Both the position numbers and the translations under genes were made by a program. DNA of 60,892 nucleotides, taken from a virus. Taxonomy: Duplodnaviria; Caudoviricetes. This document shows, piece after piece, positions 3,203-59,100 of this stretch. The stretch is taken from positions 1 through 60,892 of IMG/VR virus record IMGVR_UViG_3300044820_000060; one strand, written 5' to 3'. Below the pieces are notes generated by a model. It was not told the origin of the DNA, did not search any database, and worked only from the letters and a program-made list of their open reading frames with translations. How positions within the stretch are numbered: the first letter of the stretch is position 1; each line of letters starts with the position of its first letter.

Positions 3203-3484
3203 TTAGGCCACGGTTTCGAGATGATCCTTGAACCACCCTCTCCACCGCTCGATCTCATCGAAGGGATTCCGATAATGGTCTGGGCGCAGTTCCCAACGTG
3301 GGATGGAATAGCGCTCCTCGAGCGCGGGAACGGCTTCAAGTGGGATGCCCTTCTTGCGCCATTTATTCACTGCTGCACGGCTCAAGCCGCGATCTTTCGC
3401 GACGAGCGGACAGGAGCCGGCGACTTCAATCAGCCGATTGTAGCCGGTGACAAGGCTTTGCTCTGGTGCGCATACTTTGCTCAT
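3203..3484 (-). CDS. cro: Cro-like (YdaS family) HTH regulator
   Basis: GLSRAAVNKW helix-turn-helix and IPRWELRPD motif; divergent from the CI-like gene. Confidence 0.8.
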   Translation of the reverse strand: MSKVCAPEQSLVTGYNRLIEVAGSCPLVAKDRGLSRAAVNKWRKKGIPLEAVPALEERYSIPRWELRPDHYRNPFDEIERWRGWFKDHLETVA

Positions 3485-3491
3485 GCGTGAC

Positions 3492-3520
3492 AGGGTACTT
3501 AAGAGATGACATCGTGTCAA
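3492..3520 (-). promoter_or_regulatory. pR-like sigma70 promoter for cro with an overlapping palindrome
   Basis: TTGACA-17-TACCCT on the minus strand; TGACA-TCG-TGTCA inverted repeat overlaps the -35. Confidence 0.6.
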
Positions 3521-3561
3521 CCAGCGGTGTCGCTGCACCTCCCAAAAAAGGGGAACTGAGT

Positions 3562-4212
3562 ATGAGGTACGATTTCGCGGGACTTCCCCGAAGAATAAAG
3601 GAATCAAGGGAGTGTGCCAAGATGTCACGCGAACAATTGGGAATATTCGTTGGCGGAAAGAGTAGGCAAGCCGTAGCTAGGTGGGAGCAGCCCTATGGTC
3701 GAGAACGAAACTCAGTTCCCGATCTGGAAACAATCAGCGAAATTGCTGATATCCTGCGGGTTGATTTCCTCTGGCTCTTGACGGGACAACGCTACGCTCC
3801 AGACGCCGAGGGTATTCAGGGAGTTTTAATTCCGGTGTTTGCGCTTGAATCATTTCACAAAAAACAGGCCCCATTATTCCACAAACGAACATTAGCAGCG
3901 GCCAGCGATGAAACTGATGGCTTCCGTGTCCCCAACCTAGCGAACGCCCCGGAGTACCTTCCAGGCGACGTCTGCGTAACTGAGCCCGCGAAAGAGCCGC
4001 ATCCGGGAAAGATGATGGTCGCGCGGCTAACCGCCAAGGGCGTCAACGTCTTCGGTCGGTGTGTTGTCATCGGTTTAGGCCCTGGCGGAGAGCCGATCTA
4101 TGAGATCGTGCCTCTCAAAGAGGGGTATCCGCGATTCTCGTCGCAAACTGAGAAGATCGAACTTTTGGCGGTGGTGATCGAACTCCACAAAGACTTGAGA
4201 AATCGCGATTGA
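3562..4212 (+). CDS. cI: CI-like repressor (XRE HTH plus degenerate S24-like C-terminal domain)
   Basis: RIKESR...SREQLG...SRQAVARWE...LRVDFLWLLTG; C-terminal FRV...P.YLPGDVCV.EP...PHPGKMMVARL. Confidence 0.8.
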   Translation: MRYDFAGLPRRIKESRECAKMSREQLGIFVGGKSRQAVARWEQPYGRERNSVPDLETISEIADILRVDFLWLLTGQRYAPDAEGIQGVLIPVFALESFHKKQAPLFHKRTLAAASDETDGFRVPNLANAPEYLPGDVCVTEPAKEPHPGKMMVARLTAKGVNVFGRCVVIGLGPGGEPIYEIVPLKEGYPRFSSQTEKIELLAVVIELHKDLRNRD

Positions 4213-7750: not shown

Positions 7751-9268
7751 ATGAGATATATAAGCCTCTTCAGCGGCATCGAAGCCGCATCCTGCGCATT
7801 TCATCCGCTAGGCTGGGAACCAGTCGCCTTTGCCGAGACGGATCGTGCTGCGTGCGAACTGCTGGCGTATCGCTGGCCCGGTGTGCCGAACTTGGGCGAT
7901 GTCAGCAAAATCACCGATGAGCAGATCAAGACGCTCGGGCGCATCGATGTCGTGGTTGCGGGCTGGCCGTGCCAGGACGTGAGCATCGCCGGCAAGAGAA
8001 AGGGGTTCAAGGATGTCAACGGCACGAGCACGCGCTCTGGCCTTTTCTTCGAGGCAATCAGACTTATTCGAGCAGCAAATCCTCGATGGCTCGTCGCAGA
8101 AAACGTCCCAGGACTCTTCAGCAGCCACGGTGGACGAGACTTTGCAACGGTGGTTGGTGAAACACTTGGGCTCACCTTTGACGTACCGCGAGGCGGGTGG
8201 CCAAACTCCGGTATTGCAGCCAGCGCAAGAGGGCGCCTCGAATGGGCAGAGTTGGACGCGCAGTTCTGGCACCTGGCGCAACGGCGCGAGCGTGTGTTCT
8301 TTGTCGGATATTTTGGAGCCGACTGGAGTGATTTCGGCCCGATATTACTTGAGCGGGAAAGCTTGCTCTGGAATCCTCCGCCGAGCCGACAATCGCGGAA
8401 AGACCTTGCCCCCACAATTAGCGCATGCACTTCAGGCGGTGGCGGACTCGGGACGGACTTCGATCTCGATGGAGGATTGATCGAGGTCACGCACGCGCCC
8501 CGTGCCGATGGCTTCGACGCGAGCGAGGATGGCACGGGGCGCGGGACGCCGCTTGTGCCGGTCGCATTCGGCGGTAACAACACATCAGGCCCTATCGCCG
8601 TCTCGACGGCGATAAACGCCAAGGGCGGCAGCGGGCGGATGGATTTTGAGACGGAGACGCTGATTGCGTTCTCGTGCAAAGACCACAGGAACGATGCGCA
8701 GTCTGACATAGCGCCCGCCATGCGCGCCATGAACCACACCGAAAGCCATGCGAATGCAGGCGGACAGTTGGCGGTTGCTTTTGCCTTGCGTGGCCGGGAA
8801 GGCGGCGCAATGCCTGAAATGGAAGGCGACACGGCGGGTGCGCTGCGGGCGGCTTCTGGCGGGTCGAGCAGGAGTTATGTGGCGTTCCATGAGAACCAAC
8901 GTGGAGAGCTCACGGTCAACGATACAGCGGGAAGCCTGAAAGTCGGCGGGGGTAAACCAGGCCAGGGTTATCCTGCTGTGCAAGGACCGTGTGGAGTTCG
9001 GCGCCTCGTTCCCGTCGAGTGCGAGCGCTTAATGGGCGTGCCTGATAATTATACGCGCATCCCCACTCGTATCTACGCCAGCAAACCCCGATCGAAGCAT
9101 TACGACAAATACCCGGACCAATACGACCGCAACGAGGATGGGACGTGGACGCGCTACGCGGCGGACGGTCCAAGGTATAAGCAACTCGGTAACTCGTTCC
9201 CCGTTCCCGTCGTTCGCTGGATCGGGACTCGCATCGCCGCAGTTGACAAAATGCTGCGGAATCTGTGA
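7751..9268 (+). CDS. DNA (cytosine-5) methyltransferase, orphan
   Basis: Motifs FSGIEA (I), GWPCQD (IV), ENVPG (VI), QRRERVF (VIII), RRLVPVECERLMG (IX), YKQLGNS (X). Confidence 0.95.
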   Translation: MRYISLFSGIEAASCAFHPLGWEPVAFAETDRAACELLAYRWPGVPNLGDVSKITDEQIKTLGRIDVVVAGWPCQDVSIAGKRKGFKDVNGTSTRSGLFFEAIRLIRAANPRWLVAENVPGLFSSHGGRDFATVVGETLGLTFDVPRGGWPNSGIAASARGRLEWAELDAQFWHLAQRRERVFFVGYFGADWSDFGPILLERESLLWNPPPSRQSRKDLAPTISACTSGGGGLGTDFDLDGGLIEVTHAPRADGFDASEDGTGRGTPLVPVAFGGNNTSGPIAVSTAINAKGGSGRMDFETETLIAFSCKDHRNDAQSDIAPAMRAMNHTESHANAGGQLAVAFALRGREGGAMPEMEGDTAGALRAASGGSSRSYVAFHENQRGELTVNDTAGSLKVGGGKPGQGYPAVQGPCGVRRLVPVECERLMGVPDNYTRIPTRIYASKPRSKHYDKYPDQYDRNEDGTWTRYAADGPRYKQLGNSFPVPVVRWIGTRIAAVDKMLRNL

Positions 9269-11407: not shown

Positions 11408-11859
11408 GGTCTCTGTCCTTTGAGAGTAGCTGTCGCGCAAGGTGTCTTGAGACTAGCTGTCCACGCTCTTTGGTTCGCAGGTATTGCGTCGGCGCAGCCG
11501 CAGGTATACCGGCGAAAAACCGGCCTAATTGGGCAAAAAGGCCAGCAAAACGTGCGTTTTTGCCGATCACGTGGGGAAATCACGTTATACCGGCGACCGC
11601 GGCCACGTGAGGTGTCTTTGTGTCGGGACGTGCTCATCGTATCGTCACCTTATGAGGGACGTTGTTCCGGTTTGAAACGCGGTCCATCCTGACGCGAGGG
11701 TGGTCTCTCATCTCCTGCTTGATGATGCTCTCGGATGCTCCCGTTACCTTCCTCACACGCATGATCAGATCCGTGGACGTCCACTCTCCTCGCAGGAGGT
11801 CGATCTGGTGTCTCACACGCTCCCTTGCGTCGGAGAGACGCTTGCCGCGACGGGGTGTC
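10304..11859 (+). repeat. Co-oriented GGTGTC(Y) motif cluster
   Basis: Exact GGTGTC at 10304, 10342, 10416, 10479, 10494, 10526, 10536, 10592, 11441, 11611, 11807, 11854; GAGTGACA three times near 10546-10583. Confidence 0.75.
11404..11637 (-). CDS. Small basic hypothetical protein
   Basis: ATGA overlaps with both neighbours; no recognisable motif. Confidence 0.35.
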   Translation of the reverse strand: MSTSRHKDTSRGRGRRYNVISPRDRQKRTFCWPFCPIRPVFRRYTCGCADAIPANQRAWTASLKTPCATATLKGQRP

Positions 11860-13529
11860 TCTGTCTCATCGCCCTCCACGTCGAAGTCCTGGTAGTCCGG
11901 CTTGCCGAGTCTCTTCAGCGCCTTCACGGCGTCCTCTACCTCTTCCTCGGAGACGTAGGCGCCATGAGCGCGGGTGAGTTTGCCTCCGGTAAGGTAGAGC
12001 ATGTCTCCCTTTCCAAGCAGGGCTTCCGCTCCGCTCTTCCCGATGATGGTTCTGGAGTCGATTTCGTTTGCCATCTGAAAGCAGACACGGAATGGGAAGT
12101 TGGCCTTAGTCACCCCGGCGAGGACGTTGACGCTTGGTCGCTGCGTGGCAAGGATGAGGTGTATCCCGGCTTTGCGCGCCGCTTGCGCAAGACGCTGGAT
12201 GATTGTCTCGATCCGATCTCGATCGGCCGGCTTCCTCATATTCGCCATAAGATCAGCAACCTCGTCGACAACGACGACGATGTAGGGAAGCCTCTCGTTA
12301 ACCTTGGCGTTGTAGCTTGCAAGTGTCTTGGCCCCGACAGCTTCCAACTTCTCGTACCGCGCATCCATCTCATCTGCGATACCCTGAAGCGTAGCAATGG
12401 CCTTGTTCGTGTCGGTGACGACTGGACATAGCAGGTGCGGGACATCCTTGTATGGCCCGAACTCAACGCGCGCCGGGTCAATCAGAGCGATCCGCAACTC
12501 TTCTGGCGGGTGCCCGAAAAGGAGGGACAGGATCAGCACATTCAGTTCTACGGATTTTCCTGATCCGGTTGTACCGGCCACCAGCATGTGAGGCATTGTC
12601 GCGAGGTCTACGATTAACGGATCTCCGTTTGTGGCCTTGCCCAAGATGAGAGCCAACACCGCTTGGCTGTTTCTGTAGGCTTCAGACTTGACCATCTCTC
12701 GAAACAGGATCATCTCGCGCTTGTCGTTGGGTAGTTCAACGCCAATCGTCTTTGGCCCGAGGTTGGGGATGATGCGTACAGACTCAGAACCCATGTTGCG
12801 AGCAACGTCATCCGCCCGCGCAACGATCGCGTCCGACTTCGTACCCTTGGCTAATTCAATCTCGTAAAGCGTGATGACAGGGCCAGTCTTGACACTCTTG
12901 ATCTCTCCTTCGAAGCCATAGTCGCCCAACGTCTCCATCAAGGCTTCAGCCTGGCGCTTGACGGCCGGGTTACTGTGCCGCACAGGCGCGGCTCCGCACT
13001 TAAGCGCGTCTTCTGGCCGCTTTGGGTCAATGAAATGGTCGTAGGGGATCTTCGGAACGATCGGGACGAAGAAGTTCAGCCGTTCGGCCCCGGGGAAGCG
13101 TCGCGCGAACAGTTCTTCAATCTTGGACGCCACGAGAACAGGCACGGGCGTCTCGAAACGCCATACAGCAATGATCGCGCCACGGTAGGGAAAGGTGACT
13201 GCCGGCGGCGTCTGAAGGAGTCCCAGAGCGTCTTGTTGGCTGAACGGTAGACGGACACAGATCGCCGATACATCGCGAATATCGTCGAAATCTGGGCGCC
13301 TGATGAGAAATGAGCGCGGACAGCCGGCGAGGCAGCGCACTTCGCGGCCAAAAGATTGCTGCTCCGAAATGAACTTGTTGGCTTCGGGCCGGTCCACATC
13401 CCCATCATAGGGGATGGTGTCAACATACCGCCGGTTCCCGTCGATTGCGACAAGGAGCCACGGAGTCTTCGGAAGCAGTCTTTGAAGCAGGATTGGCATG
13501 TCCTGCAAAATAGCGCCATTTATGGCCAT
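11634..13529 (-). CDS. FtsK/SpoIIIE-family DNA translocase with N-terminal degenerate RepB/AEP primase-like domain and no TM domain
   Basis: GPVITLYEIEL alpha domain; Walker A GTTGSGKS; Walker B YIVVVVDE; RKAGIHLILATQRP; GAEALLGKGDML; divergent helical C-terminus. Confidence 0.93.
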   Translation of the reverse strand: MAINGAILQDMPILLQRLLPKTPWLLVAIDGNRRYVDTIPYDGDVDRPEANKFISEQQSFGREVRCLAGCPRSFLIRRPDFDDIRDVSAICVRLPFSQQDALGLLQTPPAVTFPYRGAIIAVWRFETPVPVLVASKIEELFARRFPGAERLNFFVPIVPKIPYDHFIDPKRPEDALKCGAAPVRHSNPAVKRQAEALMETLGDYGFEGEIKSVKTGPVITLYEIELAKGTKSDAIVARADDVARNMGSESVRIIPNLGPKTIGVELPNDKREMILFREMVKSEAYRNSQAVLALILGKATNGDPLIVDLATMPHMLVAGTTGSGKSVELNVLILSLLFGHPPEELRIALIDPARVEFGPYKDVPHLLCPVVTDTNKAIATLQGIADEMDARYEKLEAVGAKTLASYNAKVNERLPYIVVVVDEVADLMANMRKPADRDRIETIIQRLAQAARKAGIHLILATQRPSVNVLAGVTKANFPFRVCFQMANEIDSRTIIGKSGAEALLGKGDMLYLTGGKLTRAHGAYVSEEEVEDAVKALKRLGKPDYQDFDVEGDETETPRRGKRLSDARERVRHQIDLLRGEWTSTDLIMRVRKVTGASESIIKQEMRDHPRVRMDRVSNRNNVPHKVTIR

Positions 13530-15728: not shown

Positions 15729-16345
15729 CTGGACACCTCAAGCTGACGCAGAGGCAACCGTTTATTGACGGGCGAGGCACGCGAGGGCGCTGTGCAGATC
15801 GCCCGGTGTTCGGGGCACCAGATAGAGCCCGGCGCGCGGTCGCGTCCGCAGTAGAGCAGGCTCGAAGCCTCCTCGATGTAATGGCACTGTCCGGTTCGAA
15901 GCCGCTCGAACGAGACATCAAGCGTAATATTGACAGTCCTGCCACGAAATGGTTGCGGGTTTTGCTTCGGCGCAAATGTCCGCTTTTTTGTCCGCTTCGG
16001 TTCGGTCGGATTCGCTGCGCGCTGTGCCGCCAGCCAGCGTATCCGCCCCTGGCGCACTTGCTTCTTGCGGAGTTGTGGATCTTTGTGAGCTAGTCCTAGC
16101 CTGGCAATCTTCCCGATCACGGCGTCTTCGGTGATCGGCAGAGCGTCAGGAAAAGCCACTGGATCGTTCAGGCGCGCGGCAATCGCGCTGCACGTCAATC
16201 CAAGCCCATCAGCCCACAGCGCGATAAGGAGGTCTACGCGAGGGCCGGTCCACGGGCTTATCTTGTCGTTACGGCCTGCGCCCCTTTTGGGTTTTGGTGC
16301 CGGGGGCCTCGTCGTCGGGAATTGGAGAAGATGGTGAATACTCAT
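15725..16345 (-). CDS. gcrA: Second GcrA-family homologue
   Basis: WTGPRVDLLIALWADG...SAIAARL...TEDAVIGKIARLGL; L..GQCHY...LYCG...WCPEHRAIC. Confidence 0.8.
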   Translation of the reverse strand: MSIHHLLQFPTTRPPAPKPKRGAGRNDKISPWTGPRVDLLIALWADGLGLTCSAIAARLNDPVAFPDALPITEDAVIGKIARLGLAHKDPQLRKKQVRQGRIRWLAAQRAANPTEPKRTKKRTFAPKQNPQPFRGRTVNITLDVSFERLRTGQCHYIEEASSLLYCGRDRAPGSIWCPEHRAICTAPSRASPVNKRLPLRQLEVSR

Positions 16346-16866
16346 AGAGTATCCTCATCCGTAGAAACAAACCCGAGCTTCTCAAGGTGCAGACTTGTGC
16401 AATATAGGATGAAGTTTGTGACTGAGCGTCGGTCGGCGGCTGCGGCGCGCTTAATCATTTCGTATTCATTAGGAGGAATGATTAGCGTCAATCTTGATGC
16501 AGGGAGTTCTCCGGTTCCCCTGTGTCTGCCTTTTCTTATTTTATCTGCTGCATTGTCGGCGCTTGTCCCAGGAAACAAATGAGACGGTCGAACACAAGGC
16601 GGATAGTCACACTTGTGGCACACCTCAAAACCAATTGGATCAATGCCGGTCTCTAAGAAATAAGATACACGGTGGGCGCAGCGCAAAGCACCGGAGACAT
16701 TAAACTGTCCATATTCCTTGAGTTCGAGAGCTGGTATCCAGGGCCAGCATCCGTCCTCGTCTTCTGTCTTGAGAACATTTCTCCAAAAACGGGAAATATC
16801 TTCAGAAGTTAGGCTCGGGATCGGTCTTCCTAGATAGGGGGGAAGAAGGTACTGCCCTGTTGCCAC
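16342..16866 (-). CDS. HNH endonuclease fused to a C-terminal RHH (DUF1778-like) domain
   Basis: CWPW...YGQF...AHRVSY...VCHKCDYPPCVRPSHLFPGTSADNAAD; RLTLIIPPNEYEMIKRAAAADRRSVTNFI. Confidence 0.85.
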   Translation of the reverse strand: MATGQYLLPPYLGRPIPSLTSEDISRFWRNVLKTEDEDGCWPWIPALELKEYGQFNVSGALRCAHRVSYFLETGIDPIGFEVCHKCDYPPCVRPSHLFPGTSADNAADKIRKGRHRGTGELPASRLTLIIPPNEYEMIKRAAAADRRSVTNFILYCTSLHLEKLGFVSTDEDTL

Positions 16867-22267: not shown

Positions 22268-22615
22268 TCAGGATAACTTCCGATGCTGAATATTTAGCAC
22301 GGGGTTCCAGCGCTGGATCAGATCGCGCTCCTCAGTCAACCGAGCTTGCTCTCCGGCTGGTGTGGTGTGCGACATAACGTGCGTAGCGCCGATGCGTGAT
22401 GCGTCATCCCAGCGTTCATGGCTTGGAATTCGGGCTTGCAGATCGTCTGCTTGTCCGAAATAGAGAGGGACAAAGTTGCCGTTCGCCGAACGCTTTACAA
22501 AAGCGTAGTTTCCACCCTCCGCTTTGATGTTTTGTGCGATCTTTGGGCTGTTGAGAAACCAGTAGCGATAGGTTTTTCCGGATTGACCCGGCCAGTCGAT
22601 GAAGTCGTTAGGCAT
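22268..22615 (-). CDS. GIY-YIG-like nuclease domain protein
   Basis: GGNYAF...LYFGQADDLQARI..H...EERDLIQRWNPVLN. Confidence 0.7.
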   Translation of the reverse strand: MPNDFIDWPGQSGKTYRYWFLNSPKIAQNIKAEGGNYAFVKRSANGNFVPLYFGQADDLQARIPSHERWDDASRIGATHVMSHTTPAGEQARLTEERDLIQRWNPVLNIQHRKLS

Positions 22616-22704
22616 AGCTATTTCCTGTGTGAATCGTTCATTACATGACGGCAACTTGCATCGCCGCCAAATTCTGATATGATTCGCACGCTGAAAAGCG
22701 TGCG

Positions 22705-22791
22705 CGGAGGCGGTAGGATTCGAACCTACGAGACCTGCGACAGTCCGGCGGTTTTAAAGACCGCTGCATTCGACCACTCTGCCACACCTCC
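22705..22791 (-). tRNA. tRNA-Ser-type body with UUA anticodon (putative ochre suppressor)
   Basis: Acceptor GGAGGTG/CGCCTCC with G73; D-arm TGGCAGAGTGGTCGAATGC; anticodon arm GCGGT-CTTTAAA-ACCGC; long variable arm; T-arm GTAGG-TTCGAAT-CCTAC; no encoded CCA. Confidence 0.88.
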
Positions 22792-22973
22792 TTGAAGGCG
22801 CTTACCACGGCCCGTCTCTCTAGCTTTCCACGGCGACTAGAGACGGGCCTTAATGTTATCGGCCCGCACGTCGGCAAGTTGGAACGCGGGGCCTATCGCT
22901 CTTCTCGTCATCAATAACCTCGCAACTTGATTGCGCGTCATTTTGTAGCCCGCGCAACTCGGAGTCATACCCA

Positions 22974-23102
22974 CTACCCAAGCCTGCCACGAATTGACAT
23001 AGCGACTTGCTTAGCCGCGTCGTCGTCCCGCGCCTCGAAGTGAAGCTTCTCATGAGCACGGACGTTGAAGCTCCGGGTAAGTAGATACAGATACATTGTC
23101 AT
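22974..23102 (-). pseudogene. ORF truncated at the right inverted repeat of the cassette
   Basis: GGAG RBS; MTMYLYLLTRSF...MSIRGRLG; the TAG stop is supplied by the IR. Confidence 0.45.
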
Positions 23103-23153
23103 GGTGTTCTCCATAAAGGTTGTGGCCCTCCTAAGAGGGCCGTTGTGGGGTGG

Positions 23154-23450
23154 TTAGTACGATGCGTGAACTACGATTTCATCGCGCCCGTTTAGGTCGC
23201 GCTGAACAGCAGCGGCAAGCTTGAACGGGCTTTTCTCTAGCTTGCGCCAGTAGCCCATCGCCTCCGGTTCGTTGCGTGCGTCGATGATGACTTCCTGCCA
23301 TTGGTTGCCATCAGGCGATGGGATTATTGCGATAACCTCGCTTCCGACGATTATCCGCCAACCGTCTTTCGCGTAGAGCCGATCCTTGAGGGTAAGCCCT
23401 TCGACAAGCCAAGCTTGGCGACCGTTCCATTGATCTTTAGTAACTCGCAT
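23154..23450 (-). CDS. Hypothetical protein
   Basis: AAGGA RBS; followed by a GGCCCTC/GAGGGCC hairpin. Confidence 0.65.
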   Translation of the reverse strand: MRVTKDQWNGRQAWLVEGLTLKDRLYAKDGWRIIVGSEVIAIIPSPDGNQWQEVIIDARNEPEAMGYWRKLEKSPFKLAAAVQRDLNGRDEIVVHASY

Positions 23451-23703
23451 AGGTCTTTTCCTTTCGGTGGTTGGTGAAACCCTCAAGGGGGACCGATCTC
23501 GAAAATAGTTAGGCGTTACAGCCCAAGCTCCGGTTGCGGTTTCGGCGCGTGATCGTAGACCTTCATCCGCCGGGTCTTATGCGGTTCGCGCCAGGCCGGT
23601 GTTCTGTGCCTGTGAGTTGGAATGTAGGACAATCGCCCATACCAGTCAAGCGCCTTTTGAAATTTTTCTTGAAAAAAAATATTGATCGTCCTAGTTTATC
23701 ACC

Positions 23704-24632: not shown

Positions 24633-25211
24633 CTAGTCGCAATGGTCTTCAGCGTGGCCTACAGTTTGTGCTCGTAGTATGCTCCGTATCGTCTCAGCGC
24701 TCGCTCCTAGAGCCGTTCCGATCGCTTTAAGCGACAATCCTTCGCCTCGGAGCTTCAAGGCTTCAGCGGCCAAGGCTTCAGTTTTGCGTGGGCGACCGAT
24801 CTGGGCGCTAGCCAAATGATTGTAATACTCATATATGTGGAATACAGGCTGCATTGGCCAGCCTGGAATTGGATGAAATACATAAGTCGGAGGGGTTTCT
24901 TCGCCTATAGGGTTAGGTCCAGCCATGTCAGAAACTATTTTGGAAATAGTTTCTTGCAAAACCGCGAGCGGAGCATCGAACCATTCGAGTTCTCCTATCC
25001 GGCAATAGGAGAAAGCCTTATGCGCCGCTCTTTCCGCCTTCCACACGTTCTCAAGTTCAATCGGATATGAGGATTTGATTGTTCCTGATGAGCAATCATG
25101 TGGGTGCTGTGAGCGATTATGTCTAAGGCCGCTTCGTCTGCGTTTTGAAGATCTGGAGCATCCAACCTTATAGGGTGGCTTATCGGTTCCAAAAATATAG
25201 ATTTCAGCCAT
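24633..25211 (-). CDS. GIY-YIG (T5orf172/MUG113-like) protein with C-terminal HTH
   Basis: IYIF...YKVGCS...AERAAH..F...ELEWF; GRPRK...LRGEGLSLKAIG..LGASAETIRSIL; GGAGG RBS. Confidence 0.75.
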   Translation of the reverse strand: MAEIYIFGTDKPPYKVGCSRSSKRRRSGLRHNRSQHPHDCSSGTIKSSYPIELENVWKAERAAHKAFSYCRIGELEWFDAPLAVLQETISKIVSDMAGPNPIGEETPPTYVFHPIPGWPMQPVFHIYEYYNHLASAQIGRPRKTEALAAEALKLRGEGLSLKAIGTALGASAETIRSILRAQTVGHAEDHCD

Positions 25212-25244
25212 CTTAACCTCCAAGACAAAGATGTGATTTGATGT

Positions 25245-30964: not shown

Positions 30965-33091
30965 ATGATCCCAGCCCTATCTCAGCCTGTGCCGCGAGGC
31001 ACCGGGAAGGTTCTGCCGTTCCCCGGCCTGGACCTCGCGCCTGGGGTGAGTTTCGACCCGGACGAAGGTTGCTTGTATATCGAAGATGCTGACGGCGGCG
31101 TTACGATCGACTTTAATCCAAACCTTGGCGACGACGAAGGCAAGGACAGCAAGCACGGCGACAACCTTGCGGAGCAACTGAGCGAGCAGGTTTTGAACCA
31201 GATCGCCTCGGACGTTCTCGAAGGCATCGAGCAGGATGAACGCTCCCGGTCGCAATGGATCAGCCAGCGCGAGCGCGGGATGGATCTCCTCGGGATCAAG
31301 CTTGAGAATCCGCGGACGGATGCAGCGAGTTCGAGCGCACCGCTTGAGGGTATGTCAACGGTTCGGCACCCCTTACTGAATGAAGCTTGCCTGCGCTTCC
31401 AGGCGAACGCCAGGGGCGAGCTTTTGCCATCGGACGGCCCTGTGAAGGTGAAGAACGCAGGCCAGCCCACGAGCGTACAGGACGAGCAGGCGCAGCAGCT
31501 TGAGGACGATCTGAATGTGTTCCTCACGAGCACTTGCAAAGAATACTATCCCGATACCGATCGCATGTTGTTTCAGGTCGGCTTTTCGGGCGCGGGCTTC
31601 AAGAAGGGTTATCACTGCCCGCTTCGGAGGAGGCCGGTCCTCGAGAGCGTAGACGCGAAAGACCTGATCGTCGATAACACCGCGACGGACCTCATGAACG
31701 CGGCGCGCGTGACGCACCGCATTTCGATGTCACCGGCAACCTTGATCAGGATGCAGTTGGCCGGCGCATATCGTGACGTCGATATCGGGGAGCCGGACGA
31801 GGATATTCCGCAGCTTGATCGCAAGATCGGGACGCTCCAAGGCATCACCAAGTCACAGAACACGCGGACGAAGGAAACGCAGCACACGATTTACGAGTCC
31901 TATTGCGACTACGACATTCCAGGGTTCGAGCACGAGCAGGACGGCAAGAAGACCGGGCTCCCGCTTCCCTACAAGATCGTGATCGAGAAGACCTCACAGA
32001 AGATCGTTGAAATCCGGCGGAACTGGAAAGAGGGCGACGAGGACTGCATCAAGCGGCGTGTCTTTGTCCTGTATCCGTTCGTCCCGATGTTTGGCTTCTA
32101 TCCCTCTGGCCTCCTTCACATCCTCGGCAACACGACGCAGGCGATCACGGCGGCTTGGCGCATCGTCACCGACTCGGGGATGTTTGCGAACTTCCCGGGG
32201 TTCCTCTATGCGAAGGGCGGCGAGCGGCAGGCAACGACATCATTCCGAGTAGCGCCTGGCACTGGCGCGGCGGTCGATGCGGTCGGTGGAGACATCCGCA
32301 AACAAATCATGCCTCTGCCGTACAAAGAGGCAGGGCCAGCCTTTATCCAGTTCATCAACAATGTCGCGGAAACTGGCGGGCGTCTCGGCGGCACGGCTGA
32401 AATCCAGGTCGGTGAGGGGCGGCAAGACGCGCCGGTCGGCACGACGCTGGCGATGATCGATCAGGCTCAGAAGATCATCTCTGCGGTCCACAAGCGGATT
32501 CACGCGGCGCAGGCCGAGGAATTTGAAATCCTGAAGGAGTTGCTGAGCGAAGACCCCGAAGCCCTCTGGCGGCATCGTCGGGACGGCGCGACGCCTTGGA
32601 ATGCCGATACCCTGAAGGCTGCTCTCGAAAACAGCGACATGGTTCCGCGTGCCGATCCGAACACGCCTTCACAGCTTCACCGGCAGATGAAGGTCGCGGC
32701 GTTGCTGCAGCGGGCAGACATGCACCCCGATCTATACGACCATCAGGCGGTTGAGGAATACGCCTTGCGGGAAATTGGGATTGCTGACCCTGACAGGTTC
32801 TTCGTCAAGGTCGATCCGAATGCGGCGGCGGCTGCGCCTCCTCCCGATCCGAACCTGATGAAGACACAGGGAAATATTGCGGTCGCGAAGATGAAGATCG
32901 ACGCGGCGGCGCAAGACCGCGCTCTCAAGCAGCAGCAGATTGCGGCACAGATGCAGACGGCGGCGGCGGACAGGGCGAGCCGGGAGAACATCGCGAAACT
33001 CCAACTCGCCCGTGAGTTGGCGGTCCATCCTCTGTCTCAATCTGTAATTGCAGACCAGAACCCCGGATTGGCCTCGGGCGTTGGCGCTTAG
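30965..33091 (+). CDS. Portal protein
   Basis: 708 aa after terL; HPLLNEACLRFQANARGELLPSDGPVK; APVGTTLA; SAVHKRIH..QAEEF. Confidence 0.88.
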   Translation: MIPALSQPVPRGTGKVLPFPGLDLAPGVSFDPDEGCLYIEDADGGVTIDFNPNLGDDEGKDSKHGDNLAEQLSEQVLNQIASDVLEGIEQDERSRSQWISQRERGMDLLGIKLENPRTDAASSSAPLEGMSTVRHPLLNEACLRFQANARGELLPSDGPVKVKNAGQPTSVQDEQAQQLEDDLNVFLTSTCKEYYPDTDRMLFQVGFSGAGFKKGYHCPLRRRPVLESVDAKDLIVDNTATDLMNAARVTHRISMSPATLIRMQLAGAYRDVDIGEPDEDIPQLDRKIGTLQGITKSQNTRTKETQHTIYESYCDYDIPGFEHEQDGKKTGLPLPYKIVIEKTSQKIVEIRRNWKEGDEDCIKRRVFVLYPFVPMFGFYPSGLLHILGNTTQAITAAWRIVTDSGMFANFPGFLYAKGGERQATTSFRVAPGTGAAVDAVGGDIRKQIMPLPYKEAGPAFIQFINNVAETGGRLGGTAEIQVGEGRQDAPVGTTLAMIDQAQKIISAVHKRIHAAQAEEFEILKELLSEDPEALWRHRRDGATPWNADTLKAALENSDMVPRADPNTPSQLHRQMKVAALLQRADMHPDLYDHQAVEEYALREIGIADPDRFFVKVDPNAAAAAPPPDPNLMKTQGNIAVAKMKIDAAAQDRALKQQQIAAQMQTAAADRASRENIAKLQLARELAVHPLSQSVIADQNPGLASGVGA

Positions 33092-37369: not shown

Positions 37370-38278
37370 ATGACTGTTTTAGCATCAATCAGAAACCAGC
37401 TCCTTCCCGGATTGCTGGAAATCTCGGGCGAATACCCGAAGGCAAAGGCCGAGTGGCAAAAGGTCTTCGTGACCAAAACCTCTCGTATGGCTCAAGAGCG
37501 CTCGCTGCAGGTTCGCTACGTCGGTCCCGCACGCCAGAAACAGGAAACCGGCTCGGTCTATTACGATAACGAGTCCGGCGACCGTTGGGTCTACACCATG
37601 GAGCCCATCGAGGCGACCATCGGTTATTCGATGAGCCGCAAAGCCGTTGATGACGGCCTCTATCGCGAGAACTTCAATCCCGCGAACCTTGGGCTTCAAC
37701 AGGCCATGCGCGCCTTCTGGAACGCAACCGCGGCCAACGTGCTCAACACGGCTGGAACCTACAACGCATCCGTCGGCGGCGACGGGCAGGCGATCCTGTC
37801 CACCGCGCATCCGAACGACATCGGCGCATGGGCGAACACCCACTCCACGCCGTTGTCGCTCAACGAGGCTTCTCTGATCTCTGCCGCTAAGGCAATTCGG
37901 ACGAACTTCGTCGACGAGGCCGGTATCCTTCAGGACATCTTCATCGAGGATCTGATCATCCCCGTGAACCTGGAAGACACCGCTATGCGGCTCCTGCAGA
38001 CGGAGTTGCAGCCGGGGTCGGCCAACAACGACGTGAACGTGATCCCGAAGATCGCGGGTGGCGTGAAGAAATATGAGGTTTTTAGGTATCTAACTTCTTC
38101 GTATGCTTGGTTTGCGACGACCACAGTAAAGTCTCTGATTAGACTTGAGCGCAAACCGTTTGAGCCTGATATGTACGTGGACTTTGACACTCAATCGTTG
38201 AAGGTTACTGCGTATGAACGTGCCGGGTTCTTTGTAAACGACCCAAGGGGACTTTGGGGCGAGCTAGCCACAAGTTAA
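37370..38278 (+). CDS. Major capsid protein
   Basis: LLPGL...AANVLN...GGDGQAILSTAHP...LNEASL...PGSANNDVN...YLTS..AWF...DPRGLWG. Confidence 0.88.
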   Translation: MTVLASIRNQLLPGLLEISGEYPKAKAEWQKVFVTKTSRMAQERSLQVRYVGPARQKQETGSVYYDNESGDRWVYTMEPIEATIGYSMSRKAVDDGLYRENFNPANLGLQQAMRAFWNATAANVLNTAGTYNASVGGDGQAILSTAHPNDIGAWANTHSTPLSLNEASLISAAKAIRTNFVDEAGILQDIFIEDLIIPVNLEDTAMRLLQTELQPGSANNDVNVIPKIAGGVKKYEVFRYLTSSYAWFATTTVKSLIRLERKPFEPDMYVDFDTQSLKVTAYERAGFFVNDPRGLWGELATS

Positions 38279-38351: not shown

Positions 38352-39152
38352 ATGGGAAGTACCAGGATGCCAGCAGAATACAAATGGAAGCTAAGCGATA
38401 GGGCCGCCGATCTTCCATACGACCCCAAAGATTACGATGCTCCTCCAACCACTTGTGTTGCCGAAGATTGCGACCGCCCTGTTCGTGCGCGAGGTATGTG
38501 CCTCATGCACTGGAAGCGGTTTGAGCGAAACGGTTCTCTTGACTTGCTCAAAAGCAATTACGGAAAGCGGCCAGCGGCGACAAGGGCTGAGCGGCGGTGG
38601 CGAGCGCGTTGGGAGCGAGTTAGAAAAGGCGACTACGGCGAGCATACATGGAGCAGCCCTAAGCACTTTCGCGAAACGGTTGGCGATCCTCCAGACGAAG
38701 ATTGTCGTTTCTTGAGGAAGAAGGATAAATCGAAGCCGATTGGTCCCGACAATTTTATCTGGCTAACAAGAGATGGAAGCATTGAGGCGTCAGAAAGAAA
38801 ACATATAGAAAAAAAGTCAAGGAAAAAACATGCAAAGTATGTGGCGCGATACAACAAAAGTGTGCATTTGCAAAAGATGTACGGCGTCACGATGGCTGAA
38901 TTCAATACGATGTATCTTCTTCAGGGCGGTATATGCGCCATTTGCGGCAATCCTGAAAAATCAAAAAACCAAGACGGAACTACAAAGTATCTGGCCGTAG
39001 ATCACGATCATAAGACAGGTGCGGTCAGAGGACTTCTCTGTAGAAAATGCAATCATATGCTTGGGTATGGCAATGATGACCCAGAGGTATTGAAGCAAGC
39101 CGCTAAATATCTTCTGGACCATAACAAAATAAGTAAGAGCAAGCGTAAATGA
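38352..39152 (+). CDS. Endonuclease VII-type HNH homing endonuclease
   Basis: N-terminal CVAEDC...ARGMCLMHW; QGGICAICG...LAVDHDHKTGAVRGLLCRKCN..LG; AT-rich; start may be 38367. Confidence 0.9.
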   Translation: MGSTRMPAEYKWKLSDRAADLPYDPKDYDAPPTTCVAEDCDRPVRARGMCLMHWKRFERNGSLDLLKSNYGKRPAATRAERRWRARWERVRKGDYGEHTWSSPKHFRETVGDPPDEDCRFLRKKDKSKPIGPDNFIWLTRDGSIEASERKHIEKKSRKKHAKYVARYNKSVHLQKMYGVTMAEFNTMYLLQGGICAICGNPEKSKNQDGTTKYLAVDHDHKTGAVRGLLCRKCNHMLGYGNDDPEVLKQAAKYLLDHNKISKSKRK

Positions 39153-40573: not shown

Positions 40574-41059
40574 TTATCCTGAACAATGGAAGTCTCCAAA
40601 AATCATTTTGGCTGCTGCGCAGTATGCTTCGTGAGCCTCTTCTGGAGTAGAAAAGTATCCAAGATGATTATTTTTTCCGTTAACAGTGATGCCAGCCTTC
40701 CATAGCTTGGCATTGGTATTCCAAGCGACTCCTTTGAAGCCGCTTCTATTGGTAGGCCGTCTCTTTGTGTTGGCTTGGTTCTGCGAGTTTGTAGCAGGAC
40801 GTAAATTCTGTATTCGGTTATTAACCTTGTCTAAATCTGCGTGATCAATACGCTTCGGCATATATCCATGATGCCATAGGAATATAACCCTATGGAGTGG
40901 GTATAACCGATATGAAATGTGGACTTGGTAGTAACCGTTAGAATGCAGACATCCTGCAATCTGTCCGCGTTTCACCCTACCGACCGGCGATGCGCGCCAA
41001 GTTAGATAGCCATCTTCGTGATAGTCGAATAGTTCTCTAACTTGCTCTTGAGTAAGCAT
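40574..41059 (-). CDS. HNH-AP2 homing endonuclease
   Basis: LTQEQVRELFDY...HRVIF...IDHADLDKVNNRIQNLR...SGFKGV...HLGYFSTPEEAHEAY. Confidence 0.92.
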   Translation of the reverse strand: MLTQEQVRELFDYHEDGYLTWRASPVGRVKRGQIAGCLHSNGYYQVHISYRLYPLHRVIFLWHHGYMPKRIDHADLDKVNNRIQNLRPATNSQNQANTKRRPTNRSGFKGVAWNTNAKLWKAGITVNGKNNHLGYFSTPEEAHEAYCAAAKMIFGDFHCSG

Positions 41060-41256
41060 GAAACACCTCTGTCGTGTTTGTCTGGATGATGAGGTGAGGC
41101 AGGCCGTCCAGAAAACGGCTTTTCGGGTGATCATTCCCTAGCCCCAGCCATAATGTGGGAATTAATGCAAGCAAAATCAAGGCAATGGTTAGCGGCGCCC
41201 GCTAGTTTCGCCTACACCCCCCAAATTGGCCGGATGGCCTATAAGGATAATCAGAT

Positions 41257-55634: not shown

Positions 55635-56135
55635 ATGAGAATGCACGAAGCAACCAGCGCGCCGCTGGCGGCTCAAGCCTTGCCGCGCGTCCGCCGTGCT
55701 GTTGAATCTGATTTGGAAGAAGTGCTCCAACTCGGAAGGGATCTCCATGCCGAGAACGGCTTGATGGGTCTGGACGAGGATTTGATCCGCCAAGCCGCGG
55801 TCCAGGCGATCATGCACAACAATGGCATCGTGGGTGTGATCGGCAAAGACCCTATCGAGGCGATGATTTACCTCGGGTTAAGACAGTATTGGTACACCAA
55901 GGACGTGCATTTAGAAGAAATGCTCGCCTACGTTCGTCCTGACCACCGCCGCTCCAAGAACGCCATCGCCCTGATCGAGTTCGCCAAATCGGCATCTCTC
56001 AGCCTTGGTATTCCCCTCCTTATCGGTATCGTTTCAAACGAGAAGACTACCCAAAAAATCCGCCTTTACGAACGGCGTCTCGGCAAGCAGTCGGGCGCAT
56101 ATTTCGTGTATAACGGGCACACCGGAAAAGGTTAA
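55635..56135 (+). CDS. GNAT-like acetyltransferase
   Basis: VRRAVESDL...YVRPDHRRS..A..LIEFAK...RLYER. Confidence 0.75.
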   Translation: MRMHEATSAPLAAQALPRVRRAVESDLEEVLQLGRDLHAENGLMGLDEDLIRQAAVQAIMHNNGIVGVIGKDPIEAMIYLGLRQYWYTKDVHLEEMLAYVRPDHRRSKNAIALIEFAKSASLSLGIPLLIGIVSNEKTTQKIRLYERRLGKQSGAYFVYNGHTGKG

Positions 56136-56141
56136 GCCTCT

Positions 56142-59100
56142 ATGGGCAACTCCGCACAAACGAACACTGCAAATAACACTGCGACCAATTCGGCTACCAA
56201 CGCCAATTCTGCAACGAATTATGGTTCGAATACGGGATCCAACACCGCCCAAACCTCGAACTATTCGAGCGCGACAGGTCCGAGTGCGGCGGGCCAGGCC
56301 CTTATCAATCAGGCCACGAATCCATCGAATACGATTTCGAATATCTCTTCGTTCATGAGTCCATACACCCAATCGGTGTTGAACTCACAAGTTGCCCTTC
56401 AGAACCAGCAGGACGCACAGCAACAGAGCCAATTGTCGGGGAATGCTGCCTCGGCTGGTGCTCTCGGCGGGGATCGCGCGGTTCTGGCTGGGGCGTCTCT
56501 CGCTGGACAGCAGGCGCTCGCGAACAATGCGGCGAACTCACAGACCTTGCAGGCTGGATATGGTCAAGCGCTCAACGCGGCGCAGCAGACGGCGGGCCAG
56601 CAGTTACAGGGCGCGGGATTGAGCGGAACGCAGACTGCGGGCGGACAGCAATCGGCAGGATCGACCGCATCATCCACCCTCGGTGGCACACAGTCTTCGC
56701 AAAATAGCGCGACGGCCGGAACGAGTGCGGGAACAGGATCGTCGACTACGACGCAGATCCCCGGCTTGGCTTCAAACATCGGTCTCGGCGTAGGTCTTCT
56801 CGGAATGCTCAAGGACGGCGGGCGTGTTGATCGTGCCGACGGCGGAAGGGCGAGCATCGGCGGGATACAGGCTTTCGACAATGGCGGTGGCGTGGCCGGT
56901 CAGTTCGTGTTCGTCCCTGGCCAGAACGGAGCGCCGGGGCAGTATGTCTGGGTGCCGGCGCAGTCGGGTCAAGGCCAGGGCGGCGGGCAAGGGGCCGGTC
57001 AAGGCGCAAACGCCTCTCCCGTGCAGCAAGGCGCACAGCAAGCCAAGGGCATTGGCGAGATGTACCAGCTTGGCCAGAAGGCGCGTCAGGGACTCGGAAA
57101 CCTGTTCGACTCCATGGGAAGTGGTCAGGGCTCGGGGAACGGGGCCATTTCCAAGCTTTTCGGGTCGTCTTCCACGCCTACAATCGGTGACGGCGGCTGG
57201 TCGACCGGAACACAGACCTCGGGGCTTGTTGGATCGGGCGGGATCGGTAACAGTGTCAGCAACCTCGGAAGCAGCATCAGCAGCGGCGCGAGCGATCTTG
57301 GGAGCAGCGTCAGCAGCGGTTTAAGCAGTCTCGGGAGTTCGATGGGTTTCGCCAAGGGCGGATCGACCTCGGCGCAACCATCCACGGCGTTCTTTAATGG
57401 TGCGCCCGCTCTCCCTGCCTTGAGCGTGCCGGGAGTTTCGGCTCCAAACGTCTCCATGCCGAACATCCCTGCGCCCAATGTTCCGCAAGCGGCAATGCCG
57501 AGTGTTTCCTTTCCCTATGTTCCGACTGCTCACACGTCATCGGGAAAAGGATCAGGCGGCGCGGTGCGCGGCTTTGCGGCGGGCGGAGATGCTGATTTTA
57601 ACGATAGTGATGCGGACTATACCATCGGGGACGCATTTAAGGATGGCGATAGCGCGTTGCTCAAGCCAAGTTCGATCTCGTCCTCGTTCCTGGATCGTGC
57701 GCTTGCCAAGCAATCCTTCCCGTCAGGCGGAATCTCCAAGGATGAGACCGCCCCCTCCCTCTTGAGCGCGTATCAAAATGCACAAGGGAACGTCTATCCC
57801 CCGGCGGTTTATGCCGACCCTCAAGGGCCGGTGTCTCTCGGAACGCCAGAACATCGGCGCTTTCCCGACGAGGCTCCTGCCCCCGCAACACCGCAAGACA
57901 TTCTGCGGATGCTCGCCAATGAAAATTCAGCGCTCAAAGACAAGCTTTCGGCGCTTGCTGCGGATAAGGCCGCTCAACCCTCTGCTGCGGCTTCTACCCC
58001 TCACGTTGACGAAGACGCAGGGCGCGACGTTGCTGCCAGCGGTTTTATGAATCCACTTCCGGCTGAAGCGTTGCGCGGGCCAGTGTTCCGTTCTGACGCC
58101 AGCAATTTGTCGAGCGCCCCCGCTTCAACTCCAACTCCGGTCGCGCCTTCCGCAAATACGCCATGGCAAACGAGCGTCGAAGGCGCTTCGCCTGCGCCAT
58201 CCACACCCGCCGCACCATCAGAGGCCCCAGAAGGCGGCTATTTGGCGCGAGCGATCCGCGATTTCCATCCTCTCGACCCCTTGGAGAAATTACGCCAACT
58301 TCTCAACCCCGATCCCACAGAATACCCCGGCGCAAAGTGGGGACCAGCCATCCCGGATGCCCCTCGCAAGCCCAAAGGGGAAATGCCGATTGCGGAGTCT
58401 CCGACTGCGGATTGGGCTGGCGCTTTCGGCGTGAAGCCAGAGGCGAAGCCAAACCTGTCGGCTGCACCGCAACTCACACCCGACAACACACCACTTCCGG
58501 CGCGCCGTCCGGCAAACTTGGGACAACCTGTTATCCCGCCGTCGATCGCGCAGGATGCAGCCGCCCGCGCTGATACTGTCCGTAAGGGCATGGAAGGCAT
58601 GACCACCGATCAGCCGCCTCCAGGAACAGTCATCAAAGGAAACACGGACGCGGATATTTCGCAGGTTCAGGGCGGTTCTCCTACCTTGGCGCAGCCAATT
58701 CCGACCCCCGCACCTCTCTCCACCGTTCCTGCTCCCGCTGATGCCGTTACACAGCCGACCGACGTCCGCCCCCCCGTCATGGGTGGAAAGCGCGGCGTCG
58801 TTCAGTCCGTTGTCCAAGAGGCACGGGCCAATGGCATGTCGGACAACGCGATCAGAGGTCTTCTCGCTAACGTCAAGGATGAGTCTGGCTTCGATCCAGG
58901 TTTGCGCCATCCCGATCAGCCGAAATGGGGCGGAGAGGCCCACTATGCCCACGGGCTTTTTCAAGAGGGCGGCGCGGAATGGAACCATTACGTCTCGTGG
59001 CTTAAGCAGAATGCTCCGAACGGAAAGTGGGATGATCCGCAGCTTCAAACTCGCTTCCTCGCACAGAACCTTCAGCAGAACTATCCGGCTGTCTGGAAGG

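Follow-up and report, generated by a model that had tools for sequence, protein, structure and literature searches.

Why does a phage that reads the standard genetic code carry a tRNA whose anticodon matches a stop codon? The question is raised by a 60,892-nt stretch of viral DNA, referred to here as the window, which is a linear IMG/VR record with a CheckV completeness of 83%. ARAGORN found a single tRNA in it, at 22704-22791 on the minus strand, called as 'tRNA-Stop' with the anticodon tta at sequence position 35. In our judgment the best answer, with a probability of about 0.6, is that this is a maintained tRNA that would be charged with serine and would decode UAA, and probably UAG, as a natural ochre suppressor, forming the 3' part of a transposon-cargo cassette kept by the phage. 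The initial annotation had located the tRNA correctly, but the minus strand, the leader and the transposon origin were absent from it. The gene has the following parts:

22705..22791, minus strand: class II (Ser-type) tRNA gene with the anticodon UUA (ARAGORN, Rfam, minimum-energy fold, stems of relatives)
22755..22757, minus strand: anticodon 5'-UUA-3' within the loop CUUUAAA (ARAGORN and reading of the minus strand)
22705, minus strand: discriminator G73 (read from the minus strand)
22685..22704, minus strand: GC-rich hairpin CGCACGC-UUUUCA-GCGUGCG, immediately 3' of G73 and without a U tract (sequence reading)

The Rfam family RF00005 matched 22705-22791 on the minus strand over its full length (model positions 1-71 of 71), with E 1.6e-10 and 60.1 bits where the gathering score is 29; this agrees with ARAGORN, and no other Rfam family exceeded its threshold in the window. 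Folded at minimum energy, the 87 nt form a class II cloverleaf with stems of 7 (acceptor), 3 (D), 5 (anticodon), 5 (variable) and 5 bp (T). The acceptor stem, GGAGGUG/CGCCUCC, has 7 bp and includes one U:G pair, the variable region of 18 nt holds the 5-bp stem, and the anticodon stem GCGGU/ACCGC, as read from the minus strand, carries the 7-nt loop C-U-UUA-A-A with U33. The anticodon is the complement of UAA, as in an ochre suppressor, and probably pairs with UAG through wobble at U34. ARAGORN, Rfam and the fold all bear out the intact cloverleaf with a UUA anticodon and a CU-UUA-AA loop that had been described initially. Recognition by SerRS depends on a long variable arm, G73, G1:C72, G2:C71, A3:U70, C11:G24 and a 3-bp D stem, and every one of these features is present, including the two (G73 and the long variable arm) that had been pointed out before. 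SerRS and LeuRS do not read the anticodon, and the run A36-A37-A38 favours i6A37. G73 is followed directly by CGC, and therefore no CCA is encoded, as had also been noted. The hairpin immediately downstream may be a 3' processing or termination element; the terminator scan did not call it. Two mechanically listed ORFs (22641-22877 and 22856-23059) overlap the tRNA and its leader and are probably not genes.

The initial annotation allowed for a base-call error or a decayed copy, and neither holds. A Logan re-assembly of one peat-metagenome DNA run gave a 50,695-nt contig (word depth 20.8) that is identical to the window over 22400-23200, with no variant letters, the anticodon included; this run is possibly the source sample and so is not independent of the window record. 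A search of sequencing runs for the sequence listed this one DNA run and no RNA run. The identical re-assembly, at a depth of 21, and the equal anticodon arm in many independent loci speak against a base-call error. A 24-nt arm was found exactly in three further viral contigs, and the 17-nt arm GCGGUCUUUAAAACCGC at 120 or more sites in metagenome contigs and at 119 in species-representative genomes. Among the matches listed from metagenomes, genomes and viral contigs, 168 of 244 pattern sites are ARAGORN tRNAs with the anticodon tta. By our own arithmetic about 70 chance matches to a 17-mer are expected in 596 Gb, which is consistent with the remaining, non-tRNA sites. Because the sites were collected by an exact match to the 17-nt arm, its constancy across loci is by construction. 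By their bodies these UUA tRNAs can be sorted into three sets: Ser-like, Leu-like (more numerous than the first, with the D arm GGUGGAAUUGGUAGACAC, and with A73 wherever members were inspected) and others.

The closest copies among the matches listed, at 95% identity, are in a Stellaceae MAG and a Hyphomicrobium MAG, followed by Parvibaculum (93%) and other alphaproteobacterial MAGs (89-93%), several of which, including Parvibaculum, encode CCA; a copy in an Arenicellales MAG is 90% identical to the window tRNA. When 23 distinct Ser-like members are compared, the letters of the stems vary in a compensatory manner and pairing is kept: the T stem is complete (5/5) in every one, the acceptor stem (7/7) in 22 and the D stem (3/3) in 20. 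G1:C72, G2:C71 and C11:G24 are invariant in this set, and G73 is present in 21 of the 23. The third pair of the T stem is A:U in the window and G:C in 15 of the 23. These compensatory changes across relatives contradict a decayed copy, and the tRNA at 22705-22791 is confirmed as a genuine, conserved gene.

The gene had also been described as one base away from tRNA-Ser(UGA), which holds nominally for the loop but not for the body. In the genome that contains the bacterial locus L251, tRNA-Ser(UGA) is 73% identical to the window tRNA and the UUA copy of the same genome is 92% identical, and therefore the suppressor is an old, separate lineage and no recent point mutant. The nearest named matches in 50,697 phage records are genes annotated as tRNA-Ser at no more than 82% identity, with T4-like tRNA-Ser at 81-82%.

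Several other contigs show what can become of such genes. In the viral contig L002 (2977-3045) the cassette tRNA ends after the variable arm, so copies of the cassette can decay; it adjoins remnants of a protein W, described below (137 aa, 86% identical to that of L251), and of a transposase (102 aa, 93%). In the UUA tRNA of phage G002 (L003:2977-3087) the variable region is 41 nt long and contains an extra hairpin; ARAGORN missed this tRNA, which Rfam scores at 57.9 bits. ARAGORN places about 30 further tRNAs of this phage in a separate cluster, two of them Lys tRNAs whose extra arms are long. Two viral contigs (L405 and L406) have Leu-like UUA tRNAs with an encoded CCA and lack the leader, W and transposase. 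Small arrays of irregular tRNAs, resembling those reported from acidobacterial soils, occur in 12 metagenome loci (L139, L147, L154, L186, L200, L201, L218, L220, L230, L234, L160 and L213), in which the UUA tRNA has a tRNA-Thr-like gene immediately ahead of it or is followed by a tRNA whose anticodon is UAU or CUA.

Judged from alignments with its relatives, the tRNA closes, on the 3' side, a cassette of about 230 nt. In this unit, which recurs in Alphaproteobacteria and in other phages, the tRNA is preceded by a leader ORF of 24 codons with its Shine-Dalgarno site and by a covarying hairpin. The leader has these features:

22918..22921, minus strand: GAGG resembling a Shine-Dalgarno site, upstream of the leader ATG by 6 nt (similar motif in the 14 ORF-bearing leaders)
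22837..22911, minus strand: 24-codon mini-ORF of the leader, closed by TAG, MTRRAIGPAFQLADVRADNIKARL (sequence reading; homologous ORF in 14 of 17 leaders)
22809..22849, minus strand: conserved leader hairpin GGCCCGUCUCU ... AGAGACGGGCC (alignment A2, covariation; also in the centroid fold)
22801..22878, minus strand: outer helix around the hairpin, CUUGCC (22878-22873) with GGUAAG (22806-22801) (covariation)
22795..22937, minus strand: leader region homologous to transposon-borne cassettes (nhmmer leader profile, E 5.5e-27)

Over 110-140 nt on the 5' side of the tRNA the nucleotide sequence is conserved despite unrelated flanking genes, and the leader profile search recovered 17 distinct sequences. 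Fourteen of them have an ORF of 20-27 codons with a Shine-Dalgarno site and an ATG, ending 35-55 nt before the tRNA. The window mini-ORF opens with tandem AGA codons, and its stop lies within the 5' arm of the hairpin. Just behind the start codon, residues remain basic although their codons change synonymously or conservatively (AGA AGA, AGG AGA, CGG AAA, AAA AAA), which suggests that the leader ORF is translated. Base pairs were counted in alignment A2, which holds 12 leaders. In the hairpin, 8 of 12 pairs are changed on both sides, and in the outer helix 3 of 6 pairs covary with 94.4% of cells paired. For the 18 pairs of both helices together, 92.6% of cells are paired and 11 pairs are changed on both sides. 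None of 500 shuffles matched the observed covariation score, and sliding the partners by 1-3 columns as a control lowered the paired share to 33-46%. The window leader has diverged to about 75% identity with its ORF and helices retained, and the window holds the profile match, the mini-ORF with its Shine-Dalgarno site and ATG, the covarying hairpin and the UUA tRNA together. Rfam returned no family for the leader even at E values up to 10, no sigma-70-like promoter was found in 22300-23600, and the terminator scan detected no canonical terminator at the hairpins.

The same leader is not tied to one amino acid. In three cases (L340, L314/L355 and L168) it precedes Leu-like UUA tRNAs with A73 that share the acceptor stem and the anticodon arm, and therefore UAA decoding, rather than the amino acid, looks to be what is selected. 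Ribosomes on the mini-ORF may open the helices and in this way couple maturation or yield of the tRNA to translation. We also considered that the tRNA senses itself by suppressing the stop of its own leader, and rejected this as a general mechanism: the 14 leader ORFs end in TGA (nine), TAA (three) or TAG (two, including the window), and a tRNA with the anticodon UUA cannot read TGA.

In bacterial loci the leader and tRNA adjoin a divergent protein of about 265 aa, here called W, with a transposase of about 280 aa beyond it. The transposase is nearest to the IS1 family (NF033558, E 7.4e-15, 55.4 bits against a curated cut-off of 100); its matches to Pfam DDE_Tnp_IS1 are weak, and an N-terminal zinc ribbon is present in many loci. 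Inverted repeats of 17 nt, perfect or nearly so (GGTAGTGTCTCAGTTTG ... CAAACTGAGACACTACC), enclose transposase, W, leader and tRNA. Among 10 elements checked for an 8-bp direct target duplication, it was perfect in eight, matched at 7 of 8 positions in one and was absent from one. The zinc ribbon, inverted repeats and 8-bp duplications are in keeping with the IS1 family. Repeats, duplication and transposase occur together in L251, L288, L314, L003 and others, and with inverted repeats intact and targets duplicated these transposons are demonstrably mobile. Where a UUA-tRNA locus spans 4 kb or more, this transposase lies within reach in 31 of 70 cases, and W is found in 11 of the 14 such loci that are Ser-like. 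From these repeats and neighbours, we conclude that the cassette is cargo of IS1-like transposons in Alphaproteobacteria, usually beside W. In phage G002 (98,782 bp, with terminal repeats, rated 100% complete) a 1,856-bp element is flanked by a perfect 8-bp duplication, with its transposase reduced to a 105-aa remnant; by these marks, a cassette-bearing element is seen to have transposed into a complete phage genome.

W itself matched no Pfam, NCBIfam or PADLOC family, and the Atlas gave only unnamed clusters. Its AlphaFold model has a mean pLDDT of 75, and a Foldseek search of the PDB returned nothing at E <= 0.001; the weak rows were mostly winged-helix-containing proteins. The transposase is more widespread, with homologues in 42 of 301 sampled alphaproteobacterial genomes, a tally that takes in one unpublished genome (G243) on which no other result rests. 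The idea that a UUA tRNA is a general trait of this transposase family was rejected: tRNA, leader and W were present in one of 29 alphaproteobacterial loci, which was already known, and an Rfam tRNA scan of 20 further transposase loci found none. Seven of the 29 loci have both repeats and are 2.0-3.2 kb long. Domain scans of other elements of the family showed different cargo, including proteins with the SocA/Panacea antitoxin domain; in L430 (121-1068), L443 (2462-3034) and L431 (2366-2836) such proteins (L430 and L443), or an aspartyl-protease-like protein, occupy the slot of W and the tRNA. Within the transposons nothing consistent emerged as a gene interrupted by TAA, and the W and transposase genes mostly end in TGA. 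In a single case (L290:3655-4515) the transposase has an in-frame TAA at a codon conserved as Glu in relatives, which the UUA tRNA of that element could read through.

The window retains only part of this arrangement. Its homology to the cassette is limited to about 22705-22937, which runs from G73 to the Shine-Dalgarno site. No inverted repeats were found in the window within 3 mismatches, nor up to 4 in a second scan, and tblastn at E 0.01 detected neither a transposase nor W. The window thus does not qualify as one of the IS1-like transposons, which are marked by GGTAGTG repeats, an 8-bp duplication and a transposase. The tRNA sits in a leftward run of small unknown ORFs beside a rightward packaging and structural block, and PHROG and Pfam scans gave a tailed-phage layout:

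25556-27683, rightward block: small and large terminase (PHROG/Pfam)
30965-33091: portal (PHROG/Pfam)
37370-38278: probable Mu-gpT-like head protein (PHROG/Pfam)
56142-60275, plus strand: 1,377-aa protein with a tail-lysozyme domain (PHROG/Pfam)
38352-39152 (plus), 40574-41134 (minus), 16342-16866 (minus) and 24633-25223 (minus): endonuclease VII / HNH genes and a T5orf172 (GIY-YIG-like) protein
11634-13529 (minus), 7751-9268 (plus) and 3466-4212 (plus): FtsK/SpoIIIE-like protein, DNA methyltransferase and repressor-like protein

The endonuclease VII / HNH genes lie within the head-tail module and elsewhere and are probably homing-endonuclease insertions. Given the FtsK/SpoIIIE-like, methyltransferase and repressor-like genes, the phage may be temperate or plasmid-like. 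Against 50,697 phage records the flanks of the tRNA had no match while the tRNA alone did, and the structural region gave one weak match. A search of IMG/VR with the neighbouring 128-aa protein and the large terminase found no backbone relatives.

The phage uses the standard code, and TAA and TAG are true stops in it, as the initial annotation had held. Of 80 ORFs in the window, 19 end in TAA, 21 in TAG and 40 in TGA. Read with the standard code, the window has a coding density of 0.899; taking TAA as sense raises this to 0.915, a gain below that for TAG or TGA. Terminase and portal are intact under table 11, and the tRNA does not fit the pattern of a suppressor in a recoded phage. The TAA-ended genes include head and tail genes. 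No excess of back-up stops was found after TAA, with a median in-frame extension of 21 codons against 18 after TGA. With 19 of 80 ORFs ending in TAA and no such excess, efficient suppression would therefore damage the phage's own proteins. Regulated read-through, which had been proposed initially, gains indirect support from the conserved leader, but a target gene was not found: the window contains no conserved gene that is interrupted by TAA.

Two places may nonetheless be listed as junctions. The first is the TAA stop of a 166-aa ORF at 55635-56135 (plus strand), which has a weak PHROG match to an acetyltransferase; the in-frame ATG of the 1,377-aa protein at 56142-60275 follows two codons on. 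No other large TAA junction in frame lies between plausible genes of the window. The second is in phage G002, whose capsid gene (L410:6715-8247, Phage_capsid_2) stops at a TAA beyond which 219 more codons are open in the same frame, possibly a read-through extension or a separate in-frame gene. Candidate junctions of this kind are no commoner than chance allows.

Under the preferred reading, that of a maintained ochre suppressor, the cassette would be transcribed with the leftward block of small genes, and the precursor would be trimmed before a host enzyme adds CCA. Host SerRS, blind to the anticodon, would then charge the tRNA, which would compete with release factors at UAA and lead to insertion of serine and C-terminal extension of the product. 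The translated leader, with its stop in the hairpin, probably couples tRNA output to translation. Serine charging and reading of UAA are to be expected because the fold is canonical, the serine identity set is complete, A36-A37-A38 is present, Ser- and Leu-type bodies interchange and SerRS and LeuRS ignore the anticodon.

Other readings account for parts of the evidence. The cassette might be a neutral hitch-hiker, a leftover of a transposon or of recombination with a host that is useless to the phage and has not yet decayed. It is transposon cargo elsewhere, one element jumped into another phage (G002), the L002 copy is truncated, and the window shows neither a target gene nor adapted stop usage, in line with such a history. 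However, transposase, W and both terminal repeats have gone without trace in the window, yet exactly what lies between the Shine-Dalgarno site and G73 is intact, every stem is paired with a compensatory A:U in the T stem, and the leader at about 75% identity still keeps its ORF and helices; we regard a useless remnant as unlikely, though worth keeping in mind. Somewhat more doubtful is a role as a conditional poison of termination, in which the tRNA would be the harmful half of addiction- or defence-type cargo, a mobile toxin restrained by W and the ribosome-sensing leader hairpin that poisons termination once released. The phage would have captured the ungated half and would use it to derange host termination during take-over, or to interfere with such systems. 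In favour, W, whose model gave weak winged-helix-type matches, is present in 11 of 14 Ser-like loci of 4 kb or more, the sister elements L430 and L443 carry SocA/Panacea-domain proteins of toxin-antitoxin type in the same cargo slot, and Mukai et al. (PMC5389517) report that allo-tRNAs arrest or kill E. coli when induced and lie near toxin-antitoxin genes. Against it, the argument from the cargo slot is one of position, PADLOC reported nothing for W, the transposase or the window neighbours, and the phage's own TAA-ended genes would also be affected.

Programmed read-through of one particular phage gene, giving a longer minor isoform, appears improbable. The TAA of 55635-56135 with the in-frame ATG of the lysozyme-domain protein two codons on, the TAA at the end of the likely major head gene (37370-38278) and the 219 in-frame codons beyond the G002 capsid gene are what one would look for. 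About one third of neighbouring gene pairs are in frame by chance, however, no Pfam domain runs across a TAA, and the cassette occurs on unrelated backbones without shared flank proteins, to which a generic role is better suited. A function outside translation, as a decoy for an anticodon nuclease, a seryl donor for a tRNA-dependent enzyme or a regulatory RNA, seems very improbable to us. The window loop differs by one base from that of tRNA-Lys(UUU), which would suit a decoy. The cloverleaf is fully canonical (7/5) with an ordinary T arm, the window contains no associated enzyme, and the interchange of Ser- and Leu-type bodies behind one leader argues against a serine-specific donor. The related suggestion that the gene allows escape from anticodon nucleases found no support, and a UUA tRNA is unable to replace a serine decoder. 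In favour of a function outside translation, Mukai et al. (PMC5389517) suggest that some irregular soil tRNAs play no part in it.

Among known systems, psu1 of phage T4, reportedly obtained from its tRNA-Ser as a laboratory suppressor by McClain in 1970, is similar in that a phage tRNA-Ser body carries a nonsense anticodon and is said to be charged regardless of it. It is a laboratory-selected mutant, whereas the window tRNA belongs to a natural, conserved lineage with its own regulatory leader. Recoded phages (crAss-like, Lak and others) likewise encode tRNAs that read a stop codon, but in the accounts drawn on they use TAG or TGA as sense in many genes, whereas the window keeps the standard code and the stop concerned is TAA. 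Orphan Sup-UUA tRNA genes have been annotated without explanation, in the portions of the reports used here, in phage G (PMC12484599) and Klebsiella phage phiKp24 (PMC8386662), which as described there also keep TAA as a stop. Those genes lie within the large tRNA sets of jumbo phages, and that of phiKp24 is described with arginine identity; unlike them, the window is a 61-kb phage with a sole tRNA of Ser type, a conserved leader ORF and homology to transposon cargo.

Soil bacterial tRNAs with serine identity and mismatched anticodons, including UUA, were reported by Mukai et al. 2017 (PMC5389517; reviewed in PMC7609411). The portion of their supplementary table used here lists UUA entries, one of them with the arm AGCGGTCTTTAAAACCGC, identical to that of the window. 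Allo-tRNAs have an 8/4 or 9/3 acceptor/T branch in that account and the window tRNA has 7/5, so that the anticodon arm alone is shared and the window tRNA falls outside the allo-tRNAs. The same source places irregular tRNAs near toxin-antitoxin genes and a transposon-related protein. Inverted repeats, target duplications and a leader are not described in the portions of its text consulted (PMC5389517), and a term search of its supplement, figures aside, did not find the words transposase, IS1 or leader. The elements of the relatives resemble the IS1 family in their terminal repeats starting GGTAGTG, in 8-bp duplications and in a transposase with a zinc ribbon, HTH and DDE. They differ from IS1 with other passengers in that the passenger is tRNA(UUA) with a leader and W, and the window is without the transposon's defining parts. 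In the literature searched, again with the supplement figures of Mukai et al. aside, the leader-tRNA(UUA) cassette, W and an IS1-like or IS1-borne suppressor tRNA are undescribed. Orphan UUA tRNAs in phages were already known; the leader-bearing cassette and the transposon ancestry of an ochre-suppressor-type tRNA are new.

The orphan UUA tRNAs of standard-code phages can now be tied to a defined and experimentally tractable unit of about 230 nt, which on present comparisons looks like a mobile read-through device. It exists with Ser or Leu identity and on demonstrably mobile transposons, one of them within a complete phage genome. If the doubtful reading as a gated weapon were true, it would be a toxin made of tRNA that spreads by transposition between bacteria and phages. 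More broadly, the finding hints that soil Alphaproteobacteria, Acidobacteria and their phages pass natural nonsense suppression among themselves as a horizontally acquired trait, which bears on stop-codon reassignment, and such naturally regulated suppressor tRNAs may be possible tools.
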